From positions 1-13,037 of the forward strand of contig CAZECW010000073.1 in assembly GCA_964510585.1 (NCBI GenBank): DNA of 13,037 nucleotides, read 5' to 3'. Each line of letters starts with the position of its first letter. Position 1 is the stretch's first letter. Under the pieces are notes generated by a model. That model saw only the letters and a list, made by a program, of their open reading frames with translations. It was not told the origin of the DNA and searched no databases. This document shows, piece after piece, positions 5,564-12,814 of the stretch. This DNA comes from an uncultured archaeon. Its GTDB lineage: Archaea; Asgardarchaeota; Jordiarchaeia; Jordiarchaeales; Jordiarchaeaceae. The position numbers and the translations under genes are program-made.

Positions 5564-5872
5564 CTACTGAATTTCCAATTTTTTAAGACGCATTCCCTTC
5601 TTTTGAATGGTATGCCCACACTCTTTGCATTTTAACTTAAGGGAAAACTTTTTGGTAGTCTTAGCAAATCTTTTTTGTATTGGTTTGCCCCAGCTCTACA
5701 ATTATATGTAGAAGTGTTTGGGCTGACTACCATACCCCTTTTTCTTCCTACTATAACGCCTAGCACCTTGCGCCATTTTTCTGTCCTTACCCTTCTTATA
5801 CAAGGAAACGGAGTGTTCAGTGTATGTTCTGCACTTCGGGCAGTAGGTACGTTTTTCTTTAGGATATAACAT
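5564..5872 (-). CDS. rpl44e: 50S ribosomal protein L44e (eL42), split gene: exon 1 5872-5718, exon 2 5684-5564
   Basis: Manual translation after removing 5685-5717 gives [91 protein letters not shown] (91 aa, both CxxC pairs). It sits at the canonical position upstream of rps27e and is absent from the ORF track. Confidence 0.93.
5685..5717 (-). other. Putative 33-nt bulge-helix-bulge-type mRNA intron in rpl44e
   Basis: Sequence ACACUUCUACAUAUAAUUGUAGAGCUGGGGCAA contains in-frame UAA and UAG. It has a central 4-bp helix GCCC/GGGC with an AAA 3' of the helix on each strand and an intron stem UCUACA/UGUAGA. Cutting after the 2nd A of each AAA restores the frame. Confidence 0.85.
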
Positions 5873-6036
5873 CAGTATACACCCTTTCTATATTCGATTA
5901 CATTTAGACAATGATGATTACACTTATATGTAATTTGAGCAATATCCACAACTCATTTTATACCTTTCGATTTTATATGCATTTAGAAGAAAAAGCTGAC
6001 AACCTTATTTGTTACTCCCCGAAGGTGTCCTCTAAA

Positions 6037-6576
6037 TTAAATTTGTTGAAAAAATAGAAGCTTCGCAGCATTTTTTAATATTAACGCTTTTGCATTCTCC
6101 CTTGGTAGGGTAGCAATGTCCTCAACTTGGAACGGTCCATAAATCTTCATATCGCTCCCCACTATAGCTGGAATCTGCTTTAAAAATCGAATTGGAATAA
6201 ACGTTTCATCCTTTTCTTCGATTACTCTAATTTCTGGGGAGAGGCTTTTTCCATTAAAAAGTTGCGAAAATGCATTTTTAAGGTGTTCATATACTACTTT
6301 TTCTTCCTGTGTTAATTTTTCGGTGTTTAGTTCTTTTTTGGCACGTATGTTCCTCAAAATTTTCTCAAGCCGGATATTTATGAGATCATTTAATATTAGA
6401 TAGAGAATATCATATTCTTTTTTGACAAGCTTACTCGCTAATGGATCTGATTCATTTTTGTATAGTTTTATTTCTTCTAAAAATTTTTTAGCTTCAATGT
6501 AGAAGTTAGTTTCAAGTTTCTGTAAGCTTTCTTCTTTCTGTTCTTTCTCCCAGACACTATAGATTTTTTCATACAT
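6037..6576 (-). CDS. gins51: GINS complex subunit, Gins51 (Gins15) type
   Basis: Helical A-domain (LQKLETNFY...RLEKI) followed by the C-terminal B-domain IRFLKQIPAIVGSDMKIYGPFQVEDIATLPRENAKALI. Lies directly downstream of priS. Confidence 0.88.
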   Translation of the reverse strand: MYEKIYSVWEKEQKEESLQKLETNFYIEAKKFLEEIKLYKNESDPLASKLVKKEYDILYLILNDLINIRLEKILRNIRAKKELNTEKLTQEEKVVYEHLKNAFSQLFNGKSLSPEIRVIEEKDETFIPIRFLKQIPAIVGSDMKIYGPFQVEDIATLPRENAKALILKNAAKLLFFQQI

Positions 6577-6591
6577 AACATGTTACCTCGA

Positions 6592-7833
6592 TTAAGTTTT
6601 TAGAATTTGGGCAACTCCTTTACAGAGGAGAAACACTGCCGCGGATAGTGGCAGTTCAACTTTTTCGTCTTTGTAGGGCCCAAAGGTTTCTTCTCCAATT
6701 CTAAAAGTAGGCACATCACCTGCGCGCACTGTTATTTGCCCCTCGAAAATCTGCGAATCGCTGAAGGGATCAAAGCTAGCTATTTCATTCAATTTTAAGG
6801 GTTTTACTTGGAAGCCTGTTTTTCCGTTAATAGATGTTGGAAGGCGTATAAGTCTATGTATATCAGCAGTAACCGGTTCATCTATTTTCCCCTTGGCCAT
6901 ATTTATAGCGCGTTCCACAATGAGAAACCAGAAGTTGATGTCAATATTTCTCATCGCATCCCAAAGCGGAGGGTGCTGGCTCAAGGAATTTATTATTTTT
7001 TGCTTTTCTTTTATTAACATTAGCAATTTTTTCTTTGTGTACTTGTCTTCCATAATAATTTCATTTTCCTGTAACTTGGAAATAAATTTAATAACATTTC
7101 GTGTAATTCGTCCTCCCCATCCCTTATCATTAGTATCAGGTCCAGTGATTACCTTTTTGCGTCCAATTTCTTGAAGTCCATGTAACTCTGGGTCGATTCC
7201 GCCGCCTTTAATATAGTCGATTATCTCTCTTCTTGCTTGAGAATTAAGCTCCTTCACCACTTCTGATTCGACATGTATATGGTACCCTCTGTGCCCAGAA
7301 AAACAGATGCCAATTTCACTTTTAGATAATCCAAAGTCAGGAATTAGAAAATCCTCCACAATTTTAATTGTCTCTAGCTTAGCATAATCCAAGCAAGTAT
7401 CGCAGAGCCATTTTAACTCTTCGATTTTGGACTCTCCACAAACGGGGCATTTATCTGGTTTGATCCCCTTGTCTGCCTTGCCGCATACCTGGCACTTCCA
7501 CTTGTCATGTTCATTTTTACAACTAGTTTCAATATGATCCGCATCAATGTCAAAAATTAAATCACATCCCTCCCATCCTTTCATAGGCATTTTAGGCATA
7601 GCTGGCTGGAAATAGTAAGCGGCAGAGTAGAACACATCTGAGGGCGCCTCTCTAGCTAGAAACGTCTTTAACTGGTTCTCATCCTCAAAACTTAAATGTC
7701 TAATAATTGACCCATACTTAAAAAACATAAAACCGAATTCTCTTTTACGCAGGTTAGAGGGCGAAATTATTCTATCAAAATTATCATTATAATAATTCCC
7801 AAACAAATTCGTTAAAAAATCAGCGGTACTCAT
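6592..7833 (-). CDS. priS: DNA primase catalytic (small) subunit
   Basis: Has REFGF, DVFYSAAYY, catalytic LIFDIDADH, FSGHRGYHIH and DIHRLIRLPTSINGKTG motifs. Confidence 0.97.
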   Translation of the reverse strand: MSTADFLTNLFGNYYNDNFDRIISPSNLRKREFGFMFFKYGSIIRHLSFEDENQLKTFLAREAPSDVFYSAAYYFQPAMPKMPMKGWEGCDLIFDIDADHIETSCKNEHDKWKCQVCGKADKGIKPDKCPVCGESKIEELKWLCDTCLDYAKLETIKIVEDFLIPDFGLSKSEIGICFSGHRGYHIHVESEVVKELNSQARREIIDYIKGGGIDPELHGLQEIGRKKVITGPDTNDKGWGGRITRNVIKFISKLQENEIIMEDKYTKKKLLMLIKEKQKIINSLSQHPPLWDAMRNIDINFWFLIVERAINMAKGKIDEPVTADIHRLIRLPTSINGKTGFQVKPLKLNEIASFDPFSDSQIFEGQITVRAGDVPTFRIGEETFGPYKDEKVELPLSAAVFLLCKGVAQILKT

Positions 7834-7896
7834 TTAAAAATCCCACTCTAAAATCAATTTATCATCTACTGGTCAAATATTATAAACAATGCCAAC

Positions 7897-8949
7897 TCAA
7901 ATAACTGCTTTTTCGCTTCCTTTTTGTCTACGCAAACTATTACGATAATAATTTAGAGGATGCTTTACCCCTTGGCACAACTCATTTTTTTCACATAGAC
8001 CATATGTTTGAAGTGTGCTGCATGTCGGTGGAGTATATTTTGTTCCACCTCCTCTAATTCCTGCGATATGCTCCACTTGATATCTAGTTAGTTCCTCATC
8101 AAAATCAGCAACATTACTAAATATTTCTACAAGCTCATCAACAGACATGCCTATATTTATCAGGAAAGAAGTGAGGGTAAACCTTGCGTGATGAGACATA
8201 CTTTTACCTGTAATAGCGTCGGATAAAATTTTCGATATGCAGGGAGGAAAACTATCTCTGGAGACTTCACCAAACCCTCCATCAATACCTTTATCTTTTT
8301 TTTGGGCTACTAACTTCGATTCTATAATATTAACCATTTCTTTTATTTCTGACGGCAGATCCGGTGGTTTACCTTTTTTTTCCATAAGGCGCCACTTTAC
8401 CGCTTCAGAGATCAACCTAGCCACATCATTTTTCCGAAGATATACGTAACCCCTATGCAAAACTCTGTTTACTAGTTTCCAGTATTTATCCTGAAAATAT
8501 GGAGCGTATTCCAAGTAGTTGACAACATTTAGTTCATAATCGTAAAAACGCCCACTAATGCTTTGGCGTGGCGCCTTTCTAATATCCCACCCAAATGTTT
8601 CTCTTGCAATATGAATCAGTTTATCATTTTCTTCCATAGCTAAAAGTTTATCAACACGTTTAGACTCTGCAACCGCATATCTTCTTCTTAAATAATCATC
8701 TCCTAGTGATTCGACAAGTAGACGCGCCAATGGAAAAGAAAGGAGCTCTTCTATGTAATTATCATCTTTGTAAGAAACGATTCCCTTTTCTAAAGCTTCA
8801 ATGATCCGTTCACTACCTCTTCTAAGAAGAGAAGAATATTTTGGAGAAACCAAATCCCCAATATCTAAATTTAGATTCTCAATATATTTCTGGGCTTCCT
8901 TTGTGAAGGGATACTTAGCTAAATCACCTTTGGATGACATAAACACCAT
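7897..8949 (-). CDS. priL: DNA primase large subunit with C-terminal Fe-S domain
   Basis: Has KYPF at the N-terminus and RGYVYL. The C-terminal domain FPPCI...HHARFTLTSFL...TRYQVEHIAG...YTPPTC...GLC...ELC...HPLNYY has four Cys. Alternative ATG at 8940. Confidence 0.96.
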   Translation of the reverse strand: MVFMSSKGDLAKYPFTKEAQKYIENLNLDIGDLVSPKYSSLLRRGSERIIEALEKGIVSYKDDNYIEELLSFPLARLLVESLGDDYLRRRYAVAESKRVDKLLAMEENDKLIHIARETFGWDIRKAPRQSISGRFYDYELNVVNYLEYAPYFQDKYWKLVNRVLHRGYVYLRKNDVARLISEAVKWRLMEKKGKPPDLPSEIKEMVNIIESKLVAQKKDKGIDGGFGEVSRDSFPPCISKILSDAITGKSMSHHARFTLTSFLINIGMSVDELVEIFSNVADFDEELTRYQVEHIAGIRGGGTKYTPPTCSTLQTYGLCEKNELCQGVKHPLNYYRNSLRRQKGSEKAVI

Positions 8950-9240
8950 TTCACTAACCCTTATCTAACATGGTTAATAAACAAAATTAATATTTTTCAT
9001 CCATTTCCTAATTTTGACCCTTAAACTAATATATCCTAGTTGGACATTTAAACACTTGTGAAAACAGTAAATTTAATTCAGAGAAACACACTACAATACA
9101 CACTAGTTTAAAGAGGCGCCTTACTTCCTCCAGAACTTTTCGCTTGGCATTATTCTTTCTGCAGATGTGTTATTACTAATTATAAAAATTTAAATTAAAA
9201 GACACATTGCTCTCAAATAGGATCCGTTTCTATAACTCCT

Positions 9241-9996
9241 TTATTCTGCTTCTATTCTTGGAGCTAGCCAATATGTTAAGCGCCCTCCGCCAATAATGTT
9301 GAATTCTAGTTTTATAGGCATACTGGTTGAGAACTGAACTGTAACTGTATCGCTTGCCGCCGCTGCCTTCATCATATCCATTAGGTAGCTGAGAGCATAC
9401 ATTGCTTTAGAATTTTCAGTTACATTTAACTCAAGGACTGCGTCGCTAGATTTAGGCAACCTGATTTCTACCCCTCCTGTATCTCCTGAAGCATTGATAT
9501 CCAACTCTTCGGGGGTGGCCTCAACTTCTACATGGTCACTTATCACTTCTGCGTCCTTCAAGGCTTCCTTCAAAGCGTCTGCAGTCATTTTGATTTCGGC
9601 GTTAAATTTAATTGAGGGAACAGGAGTTTCTTCATGTGTCAAATCAAGTAAGCCAATATGGAATGTGCGTATGGATGCGCCCTTAAACGTAACATTAAGC
9701 TTATTCTTTTCTGGATCGAGAGACAGTTCTAACGCGTCTCCGCCCCCCGCTCTTCTCATTATTCTGGACATATCCTCAAGGTTTATTCCCAGTTTAACTT
9801 CACCACTACAGTTATATTCGCTAAAGGCGTTTTTTGGTAGTTCGAAGTCAACCATAGCTACATGACTGGGATCCATCGCCCTGGCGTGCAGGGAATTTTT
9901 GTCTGCTATGAAAACTAGTTCATCGACTAAACCAGATAGAGCGTCTATAATGTTTTTCCAAAGCTTCGCATCCGTAAAGGCGAATTTAAGAGACAT
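9241..9996 (-). CDS. pcn: DNA polymerase sliding clamp PCNA
   Basis: Has RAMDPSHVAMVDF, LGINLEDM and C-terminal LTYWLAPRIE. ATG at 9996 follows AGGTGA (10007-10002), so the ORF-track GTG at 10005 is probably part of the SD. Confidence 0.98.
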   Translation of the reverse strand: MSLKFAFTDAKLWKNIIDALSGLVDELVFIADKNSLHARAMDPSHVAMVDFELPKNAFSEYNCSGEVKLGINLEDMSRIMRRAGGGDALELSLDPEKNKLNVTFKGASIRTFHIGLLDLTHEETPVPSIKFNAEIKMTADALKEALKDAEVISDHVEVEATPEELDINASGDTGGVEIRLPKSSDAVLELNVTENSKAMYALSYLMDMMKAAAASDTVTVQFSTSMPIKLEFNIIGGGRLTYWLAPRIEAE

Positions 9997-10170
9997 ACAT
10001 ATCACCTTTTTTAAGGGTTCTCAAATAAACTAATATAAGTGATTTGAGGTAAATCAACCCATGCCCCATTTAAATAATTAATTTACAGGTGCATATTTAC
10101 AGTCCCATTCATTTTTAAACAATTCTCATAATAATTCTGTTGTTCCCCTTTATAAGCTCCCTAGGTTAAG

Positions 10171-10542
10171 TCAAAACATCTTTTCTACAGATTTCTTTAA
10201 CCGCTCCACTTCTGAGCGTAACTCAATATTAAGTTTATTCATGTTTTGAATTATATTTGCGTTGATTTGTATTTCGCCATCTTCTTCTGCTGGTAAAACT
10301 GTTCCAAATACTCTTACCTTATCCCCTACTTTAACTTTGCTTAATATTGCATCATCAAAAGCCACAATTTTTGCCTTACCAGTCCCATCATCAATAAGGG
10401 CGACGTTTTGTCTTTTCTCTAAAACAACACCCAGAACTTTAATAAAAGAAACATCATTTACAGCAATATCCTTAATCTGTTTTTCAATTGCAGGATGCTT
10501 AGGTCTCCATGAACCGCCCTCATTACGCTGATTACGCGACAT
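10171..10542 (-). CDS. Small single-OB-fold protein, RPA14/RPA3-like replication protein A subunit
   Basis: Reads PAIEKQIKDI...VLGVV...IDDGTG...VGDKVRVFG...INANIIQNM followed by a C-terminal helix. This is the pattern I recall for Thermococcales RPA14 (PAVERKI...LDDGTG...VRVIG...IQDF). ATG at 10542; TTG at 10551 is an alternative. Confidence 0.75.
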   Translation of the reverse strand: MSRNQRNEGGSWRPKHPAIEKQIKDIAVNDVSFIKVLGVVLEKRQNVALIDDGTGKAKIVAFDDAILSKVKVGDKVRVFGTVLPAEEDGEIQINANIIQNMNKLNIELRSEVERLKKSVEKMF

Positions 10543-10656
10543 TAAAATCAACTCTTCAAATATTGAAACGTAAAGACTCTATTAAATGTATTACTGCCCC
10601 AAAAGTCAGGTGGATCTTCCTTAAAGTTCTAGGTTAATTGTGAATCTTTTATGAGA

Positions 10657-11142
10657 TTAGTTGGAGCGTTCAATTATGATTTGCTCCAAAGCCTCTCTAA
10701 GTATGTGGCACATTTTCGTCCTCTTTCTGGGGTCAATTGCAACCATTCCATACGTTTTTACATTTAAAAGATCTTCAACTTGCGAGGGCTTCATCGCACC
10801 TGGAAGATCCTGTTTATTAGCTATAGCTAAAACTATAGTATTAGGTTTATTGCAAAATTCTTCAATTATTTTGCGGGTGTTTAAAACGTTTACAGGGGTT
10901 GAATCAGTAACTACAAAGATGACCTTCGCTCCCCGCATAAAACCATTCCACAAAAAACGAAAACGATCTTGCCCCGCAATATCAAAGAGACTAACTTCGC
11001 ATTCACCCAATGTCACAAAACCGAATGATATACCGATGGTCTGTTCGTAGTTAGTGACTGTCCTATTTTCACTTAAAAGGGTTATGATACTGGTTTTCCC
11101 AACCGCGGGAAGCCCGATAAAAGCTACTTTTTCATGTCTCAT
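10657..11142 (-). CDS. Ras-superfamily small GTPase (Arf/Rab-like)
   Basis: G1 GLPAVGKT, G2 Thr in YEQTIG, G3 DIAGQ, G4 NKQD in ANKQDLPGAM; 161 aa. Confidence 0.92.
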   Translation of the reverse strand: MRHEKVAFIGLPAVGKTSIITLLSENRTVTNYEQTIGISFGFVTLGECEVSLFDIAGQDRFRFLWNGFMRGAKVIFVVTDSTPVNVLNTRKIIEEFCNKPNTIVLAIANKQDLPGAMKPSQVEDLLNVKTYGMVAIDPRKRTKMCHILREALEQIIIERSN

Positions 11143-11594: not shown

Positions 11595-12814
11595 GTGTTA
11601 GATAAGGCTTGCGGTGTGGATGTCCATAGGGACAGCCTCGTGGCAGACATCATAGGTGACGCCTCGGCGGAGAAGAGGGCTAGATTCGAGAACAGCTTGG
11701 AGGGCATAGAAAACATAAGGGCTTGGCTTAGAGAAAACGAATGTGAACATGTGGTTATGGAGTCCACGGGAGTTCACTGGGTTCCCCTCTACACAGCCCT
11801 TGAGGAGGCGGGGGTTCATGTGGTGCTGGCGAACGCCTACAAGGTTAAGAGCACACCAGGCCGTATGACCGACACCACAAGTGCACAGTGGTTGGCTCAG
11901 CTCCTGAGAAGCGGTTTGTTAAGCCGAGCTACGTTCCTGAGAGGGGGATTAGGGACTTGAGAGAGTTGACCCGGTTCCGGTTTTTAAGCTTGTTCAAACC
12001 AGAGCCGATTTTAAGAATCGGTGCCACAAGGTTCTTGAGAGGGTTAACATAAGGCTGGGTTCCAGACTCAGCGACATCTTTGGAAAGGCGGGGACGGAGA
12101 TCCTTTGAGGGCCTCATAAACGGAAAGACAATAGAGGACATAATTAACCAGAGCCAGAACAAGTGGCTGAAGAAGAGGAAGGAAGAGATTGTCAGGGTGG
12201 TTGGGGGAGCCTTAAGCCAGGTGGACATGTTCATACTGGGGAAGTGTGTGGACATGGTGAAGTACCTGGATCAGATGATTTGTAGGCTGGATGATATGAT
12301 TAGGGGATTGATTGATGAGGATGATTTAAATCTCTTGGCCACGGTTCCTGGTGTGGATGAGAGGGCGGCGGCTGTGATTCTGGCTGAGATTGGTGATGTG
12401 GAGCGTTTTAAGAGTGGTAAGAGTCTGGCTTCCTGGGCGGGTCTGGTTCCCTCTGTTCATGAGTCGGCGGGAAAGAACCTGACTGGAGGTATAACTAAGA
12501 GGGGTTCTAAGTGGCTTAGGCGTATTATGGTTCAGGTGGCTCATGCTGCAAAGAGGGTTAAGAATTCCCAGCTGAGAGAGTTTTACCTGCGGGTGAAGGC
12601 TAGGAAGGGTGAGAAGACTGCTGTTGTTGCCCTGGCCCGGAAGATTCTCACCATAATATATCACATTCTGGTTAACCGTGAGCCCTATGTTGAGGAAGGC
12701 TTCAAGAAGAGGCTTAGGCTCAGGGCTGCTGTACATCCAAGTGGGCTTTCCTTGGAGGATATGGCTGAGGTGTTGAGGAACGCCGGCTACCTGGTGAGTC
12801 CCCTCTCCGACTGA
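11595..12814 (+). pseudogene. IS110 transposase/recombinase with three frameshifts
   Basis: AGGAGGTG SD at 11581-88, then GTG 11595. Motifs GVDVH, MESTG and TD in the N-terminal RuvC-like domain; TVPGV, AEIGDVERF, SWAGLVPSVHESAG and VALARK in the C-terminal domain. Frame breaks at ~11920, ~11983 and ~12106. Confidence 0.88.

Follow-up and report, generated by a model that had tools for sequence, protein, structure and literature searches.

The window, i.e., the whole 13,037-nucleotide stretch of DNA that we analysed, comes from an uncultured archaeon of the Asgard class Jordiarchaeia, and its nearest matches among public contigs carry the labels Candidatus Jordarchaeia or Freyarchaeota; the closed genome CP147778.1 is one of them. 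Nop10 is encoded on the plus strand and aIF2-alpha, S27e, L44e, GINS51, PriS, PriL and PCNA on the minus strand, a neighbour set around rpl44e that forms a well-conserved archaeal gene string. In the region 6037-11142 (minus strand), the replisome genes GINS51, PriS, PriL and PCNA lie directly upstream of the L44e-S27e-aIF2alpha string, and after them come an OB-fold protein and an Arf/Roc-like small GTPase of a type typical of Asgard archaea. An IS110-family transposase is spread over two ORFs that lie ~120 nt apart, 11595-11960 (plus) and 12080-12814 (plus), with an N-terminal DEDD_Tnp_IS110 part and a C-terminal Transposase_20 part; this copy may have suffered a frameshift or decay, or it may be a further case of an interrupted gene.

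The rpl44e gene of this string is itself interrupted. Its frame reads normally to GYGSQPK, continues as HFYI-TAA-L-TAG-SWGK, and then resumes in the same frame. The gene, its predicted exons and intron, and the RNA elements around the interruption are located as follows.

5872-5564, minus strand: rpl44e (L44e/eL42), whole gene, with the ATG at 5872-5870 and the stop codon TAG at 5566-5564.
5718..5872, minus strand: predicted exon 1, 155 nt from the ATG to nucleotide 2 of the 5' bulge, encoding M...GYGSQP and the first two bases of a Lys codon (from translation, Pfam match and spliced product).
5685..5717, minus strand: predicted BHB-type intron, 33 nt, with in-frame TAA (5704-5702) and TAG (5698-5696) (from structure and the same site in relatives).
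5564..5684, minus strand: predicted exon 2, 121 nt, stop codon TAG (5566-5564) included, starting with the third base of the Lys codon (from translation, Pfam match and spliced product).
5720..5723, minus strand: 5' strand of the 4-bp central helix, GCCC, exonic (from the MFE fold, pairing in relatives and the CCY constraint).
5687..5690, minus strand: 3' strand of the central helix, GGGC, intronic (from the MFE fold and pairing in relatives).
5717..5719, minus strand: 5' bulge, AAA, 3 nt, predicted cleavage 5718/5717; AAA, AAG or AAT in relatives.
5684..5686, minus strand: 3' bulge, AAA, 3 nt, predicted cleavage 5685/5684; AAA or AAG across 12 sequences.
5691..5716, minus strand: intron hairpin, stem 5716-5707 with 5700-5691, loop 5706-5701 (6 nt) (from the MFE fold and pairing in relatives).
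5729..5735, minus strand: 5' strand of a weak exon-exon outer helix, GUAUGGU (from the MFE fold; not kept in relatives).
5728-5724, minus strand: 5-nt loop between the outer and central helices (from the MFE fold).
5677..5684, minus strand: 3' strand of the weak outer helix, ACC.AUAC (from the MFE fold).

An earlier reading made from the letters of the window (hereafter, the sequence-only reading) had given coordinates for rpl44e, the insert, the helix and the bulges, and every one of them is exact; its 9/10-bp stem and 6-nt loop are confirmed as well. The read-through product covers profile positions 1-76 of 76 of Pfam Ribosomal_L44 (PF00935; E = 2.3e-23), the insert appears as 11 extra residues within the match, and both zinc-ribbon Cys pairs are present (CPKC in exon 1, CKEC in exon 2). 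Excision of 5717-5685 gives a protein of 91 aa, the length of the intron-less orthologue in a genome of the same genus, which bears out the full-length L44e that had been predicted as the spliced product. A split into two genes was considered and rejected: no start codon occurs in exon 2 ahead of the final 8 codons, and both halves are required for the zinc ribbon.

An unconstrained MFE fold of 5745-5670 recovered the same structure at -18.7 kcal/mol (z = -3.2), with 1 of 200 shuffles as stable. In the hairpin stem 9 of 10 positions are paired; the exception is a C.C mismatch, and one of the pairs is G.U. A pair of 3-nt bulges separated by 4 bp defines the substrate of the archaeal tRNA splicing endonuclease EndA, which cuts after the second nucleotide of each bulge. 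A motif of equal stringency occurs at ~2.7e-4 per position and length (216,343 hits in a structural-motif scan of the genome); given this frequency, the probability that the motif fits by chance at the exact frame-restoring boundaries is ~1/1000, a figure that leaves recurrence in divergent orthologues uncounted.

A profile search of the window's genome (3.78 Mb, 96% complete) returned only one L44-family match, the gene in the window itself, and no intact second rpl44e. The insert was also found in contigs of independent hot-spring metagenome runs, and it is therefore not an assembly artefact. The sequence-only reading had let its case hang on both points. In an independent hot-spring metagenome, record 6 of run X3 is a low-depth contig from a divergent relative (window 5715-5888, 26 differences) whose exon 1 matches the window and which departs from it exactly at the intron boundary, leaving a loose end at 5715, which hints at a co-occurring strain whose intron differs in sequence. 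The one true RNA-seq run with sequence from this stretch, X20, yielded a single contig (5346-5619) whose end lies 65 nt away from the rpl44e intron. The insert is unspliced in two further runs, which bear the label 'metatranscriptomic WGS' but are probably DNA, and none of the runs gave a joint.

We compared the locus across 11 species genomes of the class Jordiarchaeia, which represent one order and two families. The identical rpl44e codon is interrupted in 10 of these 11 genomes and in three metagenome contigs. The insert is 33 nt long in G000-G004 (G000 being the window's genome) and in metagenome contig L122, 30 nt in G007 and G008, 29 nt in G006, G009 and G010, and 34 nt in metagenome contigs L190 and L191. 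Because the 29-nt and 34-nt inserts shift the frame, neither readthrough nor recoding can rescue them.

Twelve distinct intron-bearing sequences were taken for the comparisons of cut rule, pairing and codons. In all 12, an open frame and the peptide GYGSQPKP[IV]Q are regained when each bulge is cut behind its second nucleotide. Boundaries that restore the frame are degenerate by 3-5 nt owing to a flanking repeat (CAAAC in G000), such that sequence alone cannot fix the exact cut. In G006, G009 and G010 the 5' bulge is AAT and the 3' bulge AAA: a cut after bulge nucleotide 3 would yield Asn instead of Lys in these genomes. To regain Lys, the third nucleotide of the 5' bulge must belong to the intron and that of the 3' bulge to the exon, which is the EndA rule. 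These cases thus confine the cut to bulge nucleotide 2 or earlier.

The insert is missing from the same-genus genome G005 (L010; a closed Freyarchaeia chromosome, CP147778.1) and from contig L121, and the DNA of both corresponds exactly to the predicted spliced junction, CAG-CCT-AAG-CCA. With the other family of the class as outgroup, a single precise intron loss is the most parsimonious history. On this reading the rpl44e intron is old: the common ancestor of Jordiarchaeia already had it, and a single sublineage lost it by precise removal. Beyond the class, L44e was detected in 213 of 221 sampled Asgard genomes, and among the rpl44e matches listed for these 221 genomes (67 further weak matches come in addition), internal stops or a split gene occur in ten Jordiarchaeia genomes only. 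Longer rpl44e spans (246-249 nt) in some other Asgard families were examined as candidates and rejected; they are stop-free, protein-level differences and not introns.

Purifying selection on both exons is strong. Between intron-bearing genes, pN/pS over both exons in the spliced frame is 0.05-0.19 while pS is 0.56-1.0, i.e., near saturation, so rpl44e is not a pseudogene. The RNA structure is maintained as well. In the 12-sequence alignment, standard pairs fill 88.4% of cells, a share that drops to 36-47% once the 3' partners are displaced by 1-3 columns. Pairing reaches 97.9% of cells in the central helix and 91.5% in the intron stem, where both partners have changed in 4 of 10 pairs (U-A to C-G between G007 and G008 is one example), in line with the compensatory changes that had been sought in relatives. 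The covariation score was equalled by 1 of 500 shuffles, although the 12 sequences are related and this shuffle control overstates significance. The outer exon-exon helix behaved differently: it had been proposed as an exon-side helix offset by an internal loop, which stands in the MFE fold of the window (the 5-nt loop listed above), but in relatives it does not hold, with 78.6% of cells paired and essentially no covariation. Since the outer helix is not kept, the motif is of the relaxed HBh' / bulge-helix-loop type, which agrees with the relaxed form that the sequence-only reading had assigned to it.

Codon usage next to the 5' bulge follows the same pattern. The Pro codon before the bulge is CCY (CCC or CCT) in 12/12 intron-bearing genes vs 21/44 intron-less Asgard genes, and the preceding Gln codon is CAG in 11/12 vs 17/36, the carriers being related in both comparisons. 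The exonic strand of the central helix thus seems to be under constraint. With sequences that are few and related, these pairing and codon figures are supportive and not proof.

We found that the window's genome encodes two EndA paralogues (PF01974), at L031:1468-2046 (minus strand) and L032:1192-1788 (plus strand). The candidate alpha subunit (192 aa) matches the catalytic subunit of the A. pernix heterotetramer (3P1Z_B, E = 2.8e-45), keeps the catalytic Tyr, His and Lys, and contains the inserted 'Crenarchaea-specific loop', in which a Lys aligns with A. pernix K44. The second paralogue (198 aa) lacks the catalytic His and looks like a structural beta subunit. RtcB is encoded at G000:C58:3702-5036 (PF01139 match, 1.1e-173). 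In Aeropyrum, the loop and K44 confer cleavage of relaxed and of non-canonically placed introns (PMC3241643), and the same enzyme set goes with relaxed substrates that include the cbf5 mRNA intron (PMC2738675). These matches support the prediction that the genome encodes a broad-specificity (alpha-beta)2-type EndA together with RtcB.

Together, these data make it highly probable that 5717-5685 is a relaxed-form BHB intron in single-copy rpl44e that is spliced by EndA and RtcB. In the mechanism we propose, exonic GCCC would pair with intronic GGGC and the rest of the intron would form a hairpin, which would leave the two AAA bulges on opposite strands, 4 bp apart. EndA (catalytic alpha and non-catalytic beta) would then cut at 5718/5717 and 5685/5684, and RtcB would ligate the exons to create CCC-AA/A-CCA (Pro-Lys-Pro) and a 91-aa L44e; RtcB would probably also circularise the 33-nt intron. 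A BHB intron is what had been suspected at this site, and the predictions of that suspicion that concern sequence all hold, from the class-wide site and the cut rule to covariation and the enzymes.

Some considerations weigh against the intron. The 3' site is not a canonical bulge between two helices, and the outer helix is weak and unconserved, for which reason cleavage would depend on an enzyme of relaxed specificity, as predicted for this organism. In addition, as the cell has no nucleus, its ribosomes could start on transcripts that are still unspliced and make a 56-aa fragment.

The lack of a conserved outer helix also leaves some room for removal by something other than EndA and RtcB, such as an unknown nuclease and ligase or self-cleavage, with the BHB-like shape being only part of the signal. 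The degeneracy of the exact cut by 3-5 nt (the CAAAC repeat in G000) is compatible with this idea as well. However, 3-nt bulges 4 bp apart are present in all 12 sequences, which is just what EndA recognizes, and the AAT/AAA genomes place the cut no later than bulge nucleotide 2; the genome encodes a crenarchaeal-type EndA with the specificity loop, and a hairpin of 29-34 nt is too small for a ribozyme. Given a textbook EndA substrate and the right enzyme, a different processing activity is an unnecessary assumption, and we regard this explanation as improbable.

Even less probable is translational bypassing of the T4 gene 60 type, in which the ribosome would take off at the AAA Lys codon, skip the hairpin and land on the downstream AAA without any RNA processing. 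The insert in G000 does resemble the gene 60 gap: it is a non-coding gap with a hairpin and stops in the ORF, it is flanked by identical AAA codons, and its stops follow a few codons downstream. Unlike in gene 60, take-off and landing codons are mismatched in three orthologues (AAT for Asn vs AAA in G006, G009 and G010), where the peptidyl-tRNA could not re-pair, so that the protein would lack the Lys or have another residue in its place. Take-off is followed by CAC, CTC or CCC, and in no orthologue directly by a stop. Bypassing also has no role for the 4-bp exon-intron helix and the 3-nt bulges, and it leaves their exact spacing and the constrained CCY Pro codon unexplained, as it does the occurrence of the same architecture in unrelated genes with different flanking codons.

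We likewise give very little credence to a broken gene, i.e., a pseudogene or a mobile hairpin element with a target-site duplication, in a cell where L44e is missing or supplied from elsewhere. In-frame stops are what such a gene would show, and the direct repeat CAAAC...CAAAC with inverted-repeat arms superficially resembles a miniature transposable element. Against this, the 96%-complete genome has no second copy to supply the protein, and L44e was found in nearly all sampled Asgard genomes (213/221, above). The same codon is interrupted in two families that are saturated at synonymous sites, with both exons under the purifying constraint described above in the spliced frame, and in a pseudogene exon 2 would not stay open behind a frame-shifting insert of 29 or 34 nt. 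Least credible of all is stop-codon recoding or readthrough (e.g., TAG as pyrrolysine) that would make the insert a translated 11-residue loop: stop-codon recoding is reported for members of Jordarchaeia and TAG is the sole insert stop in G002, G007 and G008, but the G000 insert also contains TAA, the insert-encoded residues are unconserved as protein while the RNA pairing is conserved, and the 29-nt and 34-nt versions, by shifting the frame, refute it as a general explanation.

The EndA-type intron of rpl44e has counterparts elsewhere in the window's genome. Stop-containing hairpin inserts of 30-33 nt with the same architecture are present in gatE, an aconitase-family large subunit gene, selD and ahcY, and in each of these four genes one Pfam domain spans the insert. 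As a set, the four sites are G000:C18:16244-16273, C181:4156-4188, C193:53626-53655 and C4:20568-20597, all outside the window. A genome-wide scan for the structural motif bridging two coding frames, combined with an ORF filter and a codon-usage filter, returned 62 loci at the correct cut vs 48-53 in controls where the 3' cut was shifted by 1 or 2 nt. The scan is insensitive, as it misses rpl44e itself and rtcB, and operon junctions contaminate its output. Owing to this insensitivity and the weak contrast to the shifted-cut control, we give no intron count and report only the four Pfam-verified cases.

A candidate insert in rtcB (30 nt with an in-frame TGA; G000:C58:3762-3791, equivalent to L120:1561-1590) also lies outside the window. 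It fits CCCG-ACA...CGGG-AAG, and excision by the same rule would give LPDAHQGYG, which we take to be a conserved RtcB motif. The insert is found in 5 of 6 genomes of the genus with differing stops (TGA or TAA), while the Pfam match of the sixth, G005, lacks its 5' end; the other family of the class is without the insert. Its fold has z = -2.3, which is moderate-to-weak support. The RtcB ligase may therefore need its own mRNA to be spliced.

We lean towards a broader hypothesis that extends the rpl44e intron to the class, namely that Jordiarchaeia routinely interrupt essential protein genes with 23-35-nt EndA-type introns, that expression of core machinery in these cells would need mRNA splicing without a nucleus, and that the rpl44e intron is kept by selection. 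The genes concerned would include those for L44e, gatE, selD, ahcY, the aconitase-family enzyme and perhaps RtcB. Selection enters this hypothesis because the intron is of class-wide age and its stem is conserved despite saturated synonymous sites. Under such selection, a possible role would be to couple ribosome production to RNA-processing capacity, as opposed to mere tolerance of the intron.

A close precedent is the cbf5 pre-mRNA intron of Crenarchaeota, which was reportedly described by Watanabe in 2002 and Yoshinari in 2006. This intron occurs in Desulfurococcales and Sulfolobales (Yokobori 2009, PMC2738675), and the relaxed HBh' / BHL form is known from both crenarchaeal tRNA introns and cbf5 introns (PMC3241643, PMC2738675). 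Like the rpl44e intron, the cbf5 intron is short, lies within the coding sequence of an essential translation-related gene, has a relaxed BHB, and shows a patchy distribution of gain and loss among relatives; its hosts have a hetero-oligomeric (alpha-beta)2 EndA, as predicted here. The two differ in gene and host, in that cbf5 encodes a pseudouridine synthase of Crenarchaeota and rpl44e a ribosomal protein of the Asgard class Jordiarchaeia. They also differ in evidence: cbf5 splicing was shown by RT-PCR and in vitro cleavage, whereas we infer the cleavage and ligation of rpl44e themselves from sequence only.

In a 2023 review, EndA-dependent splicing of mRNA is credited to two archaeal genes (cbf5 and HVO_1309), with more expected to follow (PMC10485636). 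The HVO_1309 mRNA of Haloferax volcanii has a BHB motif, is cleaved by EndA and, according to the review, gives a spliced product in RNA-seq (PMC7714728; PMC10485636). It shares with rpl44e a BHB motif in a transcript that is neither tRNA nor rRNA; it differs in coming from a euryarchaeon whose alpha2 enzyme needs a strict BHB and in being unrelated to rpl44e as a gene.

Within the lineage itself, 92-95% of tRNA genes in Jordiarchaeia/Atabeyarchaeia have introns, at ~2.4 per gene, with many non-canonical positions and repeated gains (PMC11291895; bioRxiv 10.64898/2026.10.13.758758). These introns share the lineage and the presumed machinery with the rpl44e intron; the two reports deal with tRNA genes only, whereas the rpl44e intron lies in an mRNA and interrupts a reading frame. 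Neither of the two reports mentions introns in protein-coding genes; in bioRxiv 10.64898/2026.10.13.758758 the word mRNA is absent and 'protein-coding' appears once, for gene neighbours. A full-text literature search, in which subscription journals were thinly covered, found no published rpl44e intron and no Asgard mRNA BHB introns. The rpl44e intron thus belongs to a known type, for which both the host gene and the phylum are new, and its importance lies mainly in its place within a broader, apparently unpublished pattern of mRNA mini-introns in Jordiarchaeia.

Asgard archaea are the closest prokaryotic relatives of eukaryotes. BHB introns are mechanistically unrelated to spliceosomal introns, so the finding has no direct bearing on the origin of the spliceosome. 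Gene callers will annotate such genes as truncated or as pseudogenes, which distorts completeness estimates, marker-protein phylogenies and metabolic reconstructions. The finding also raises a question about cells that couple transcription to translation, namely how they keep ribosomes from reading messages that are not yet spliced. If true, it means that mRNA splicing can be obligatory for the core translation machinery in a prokaryote.
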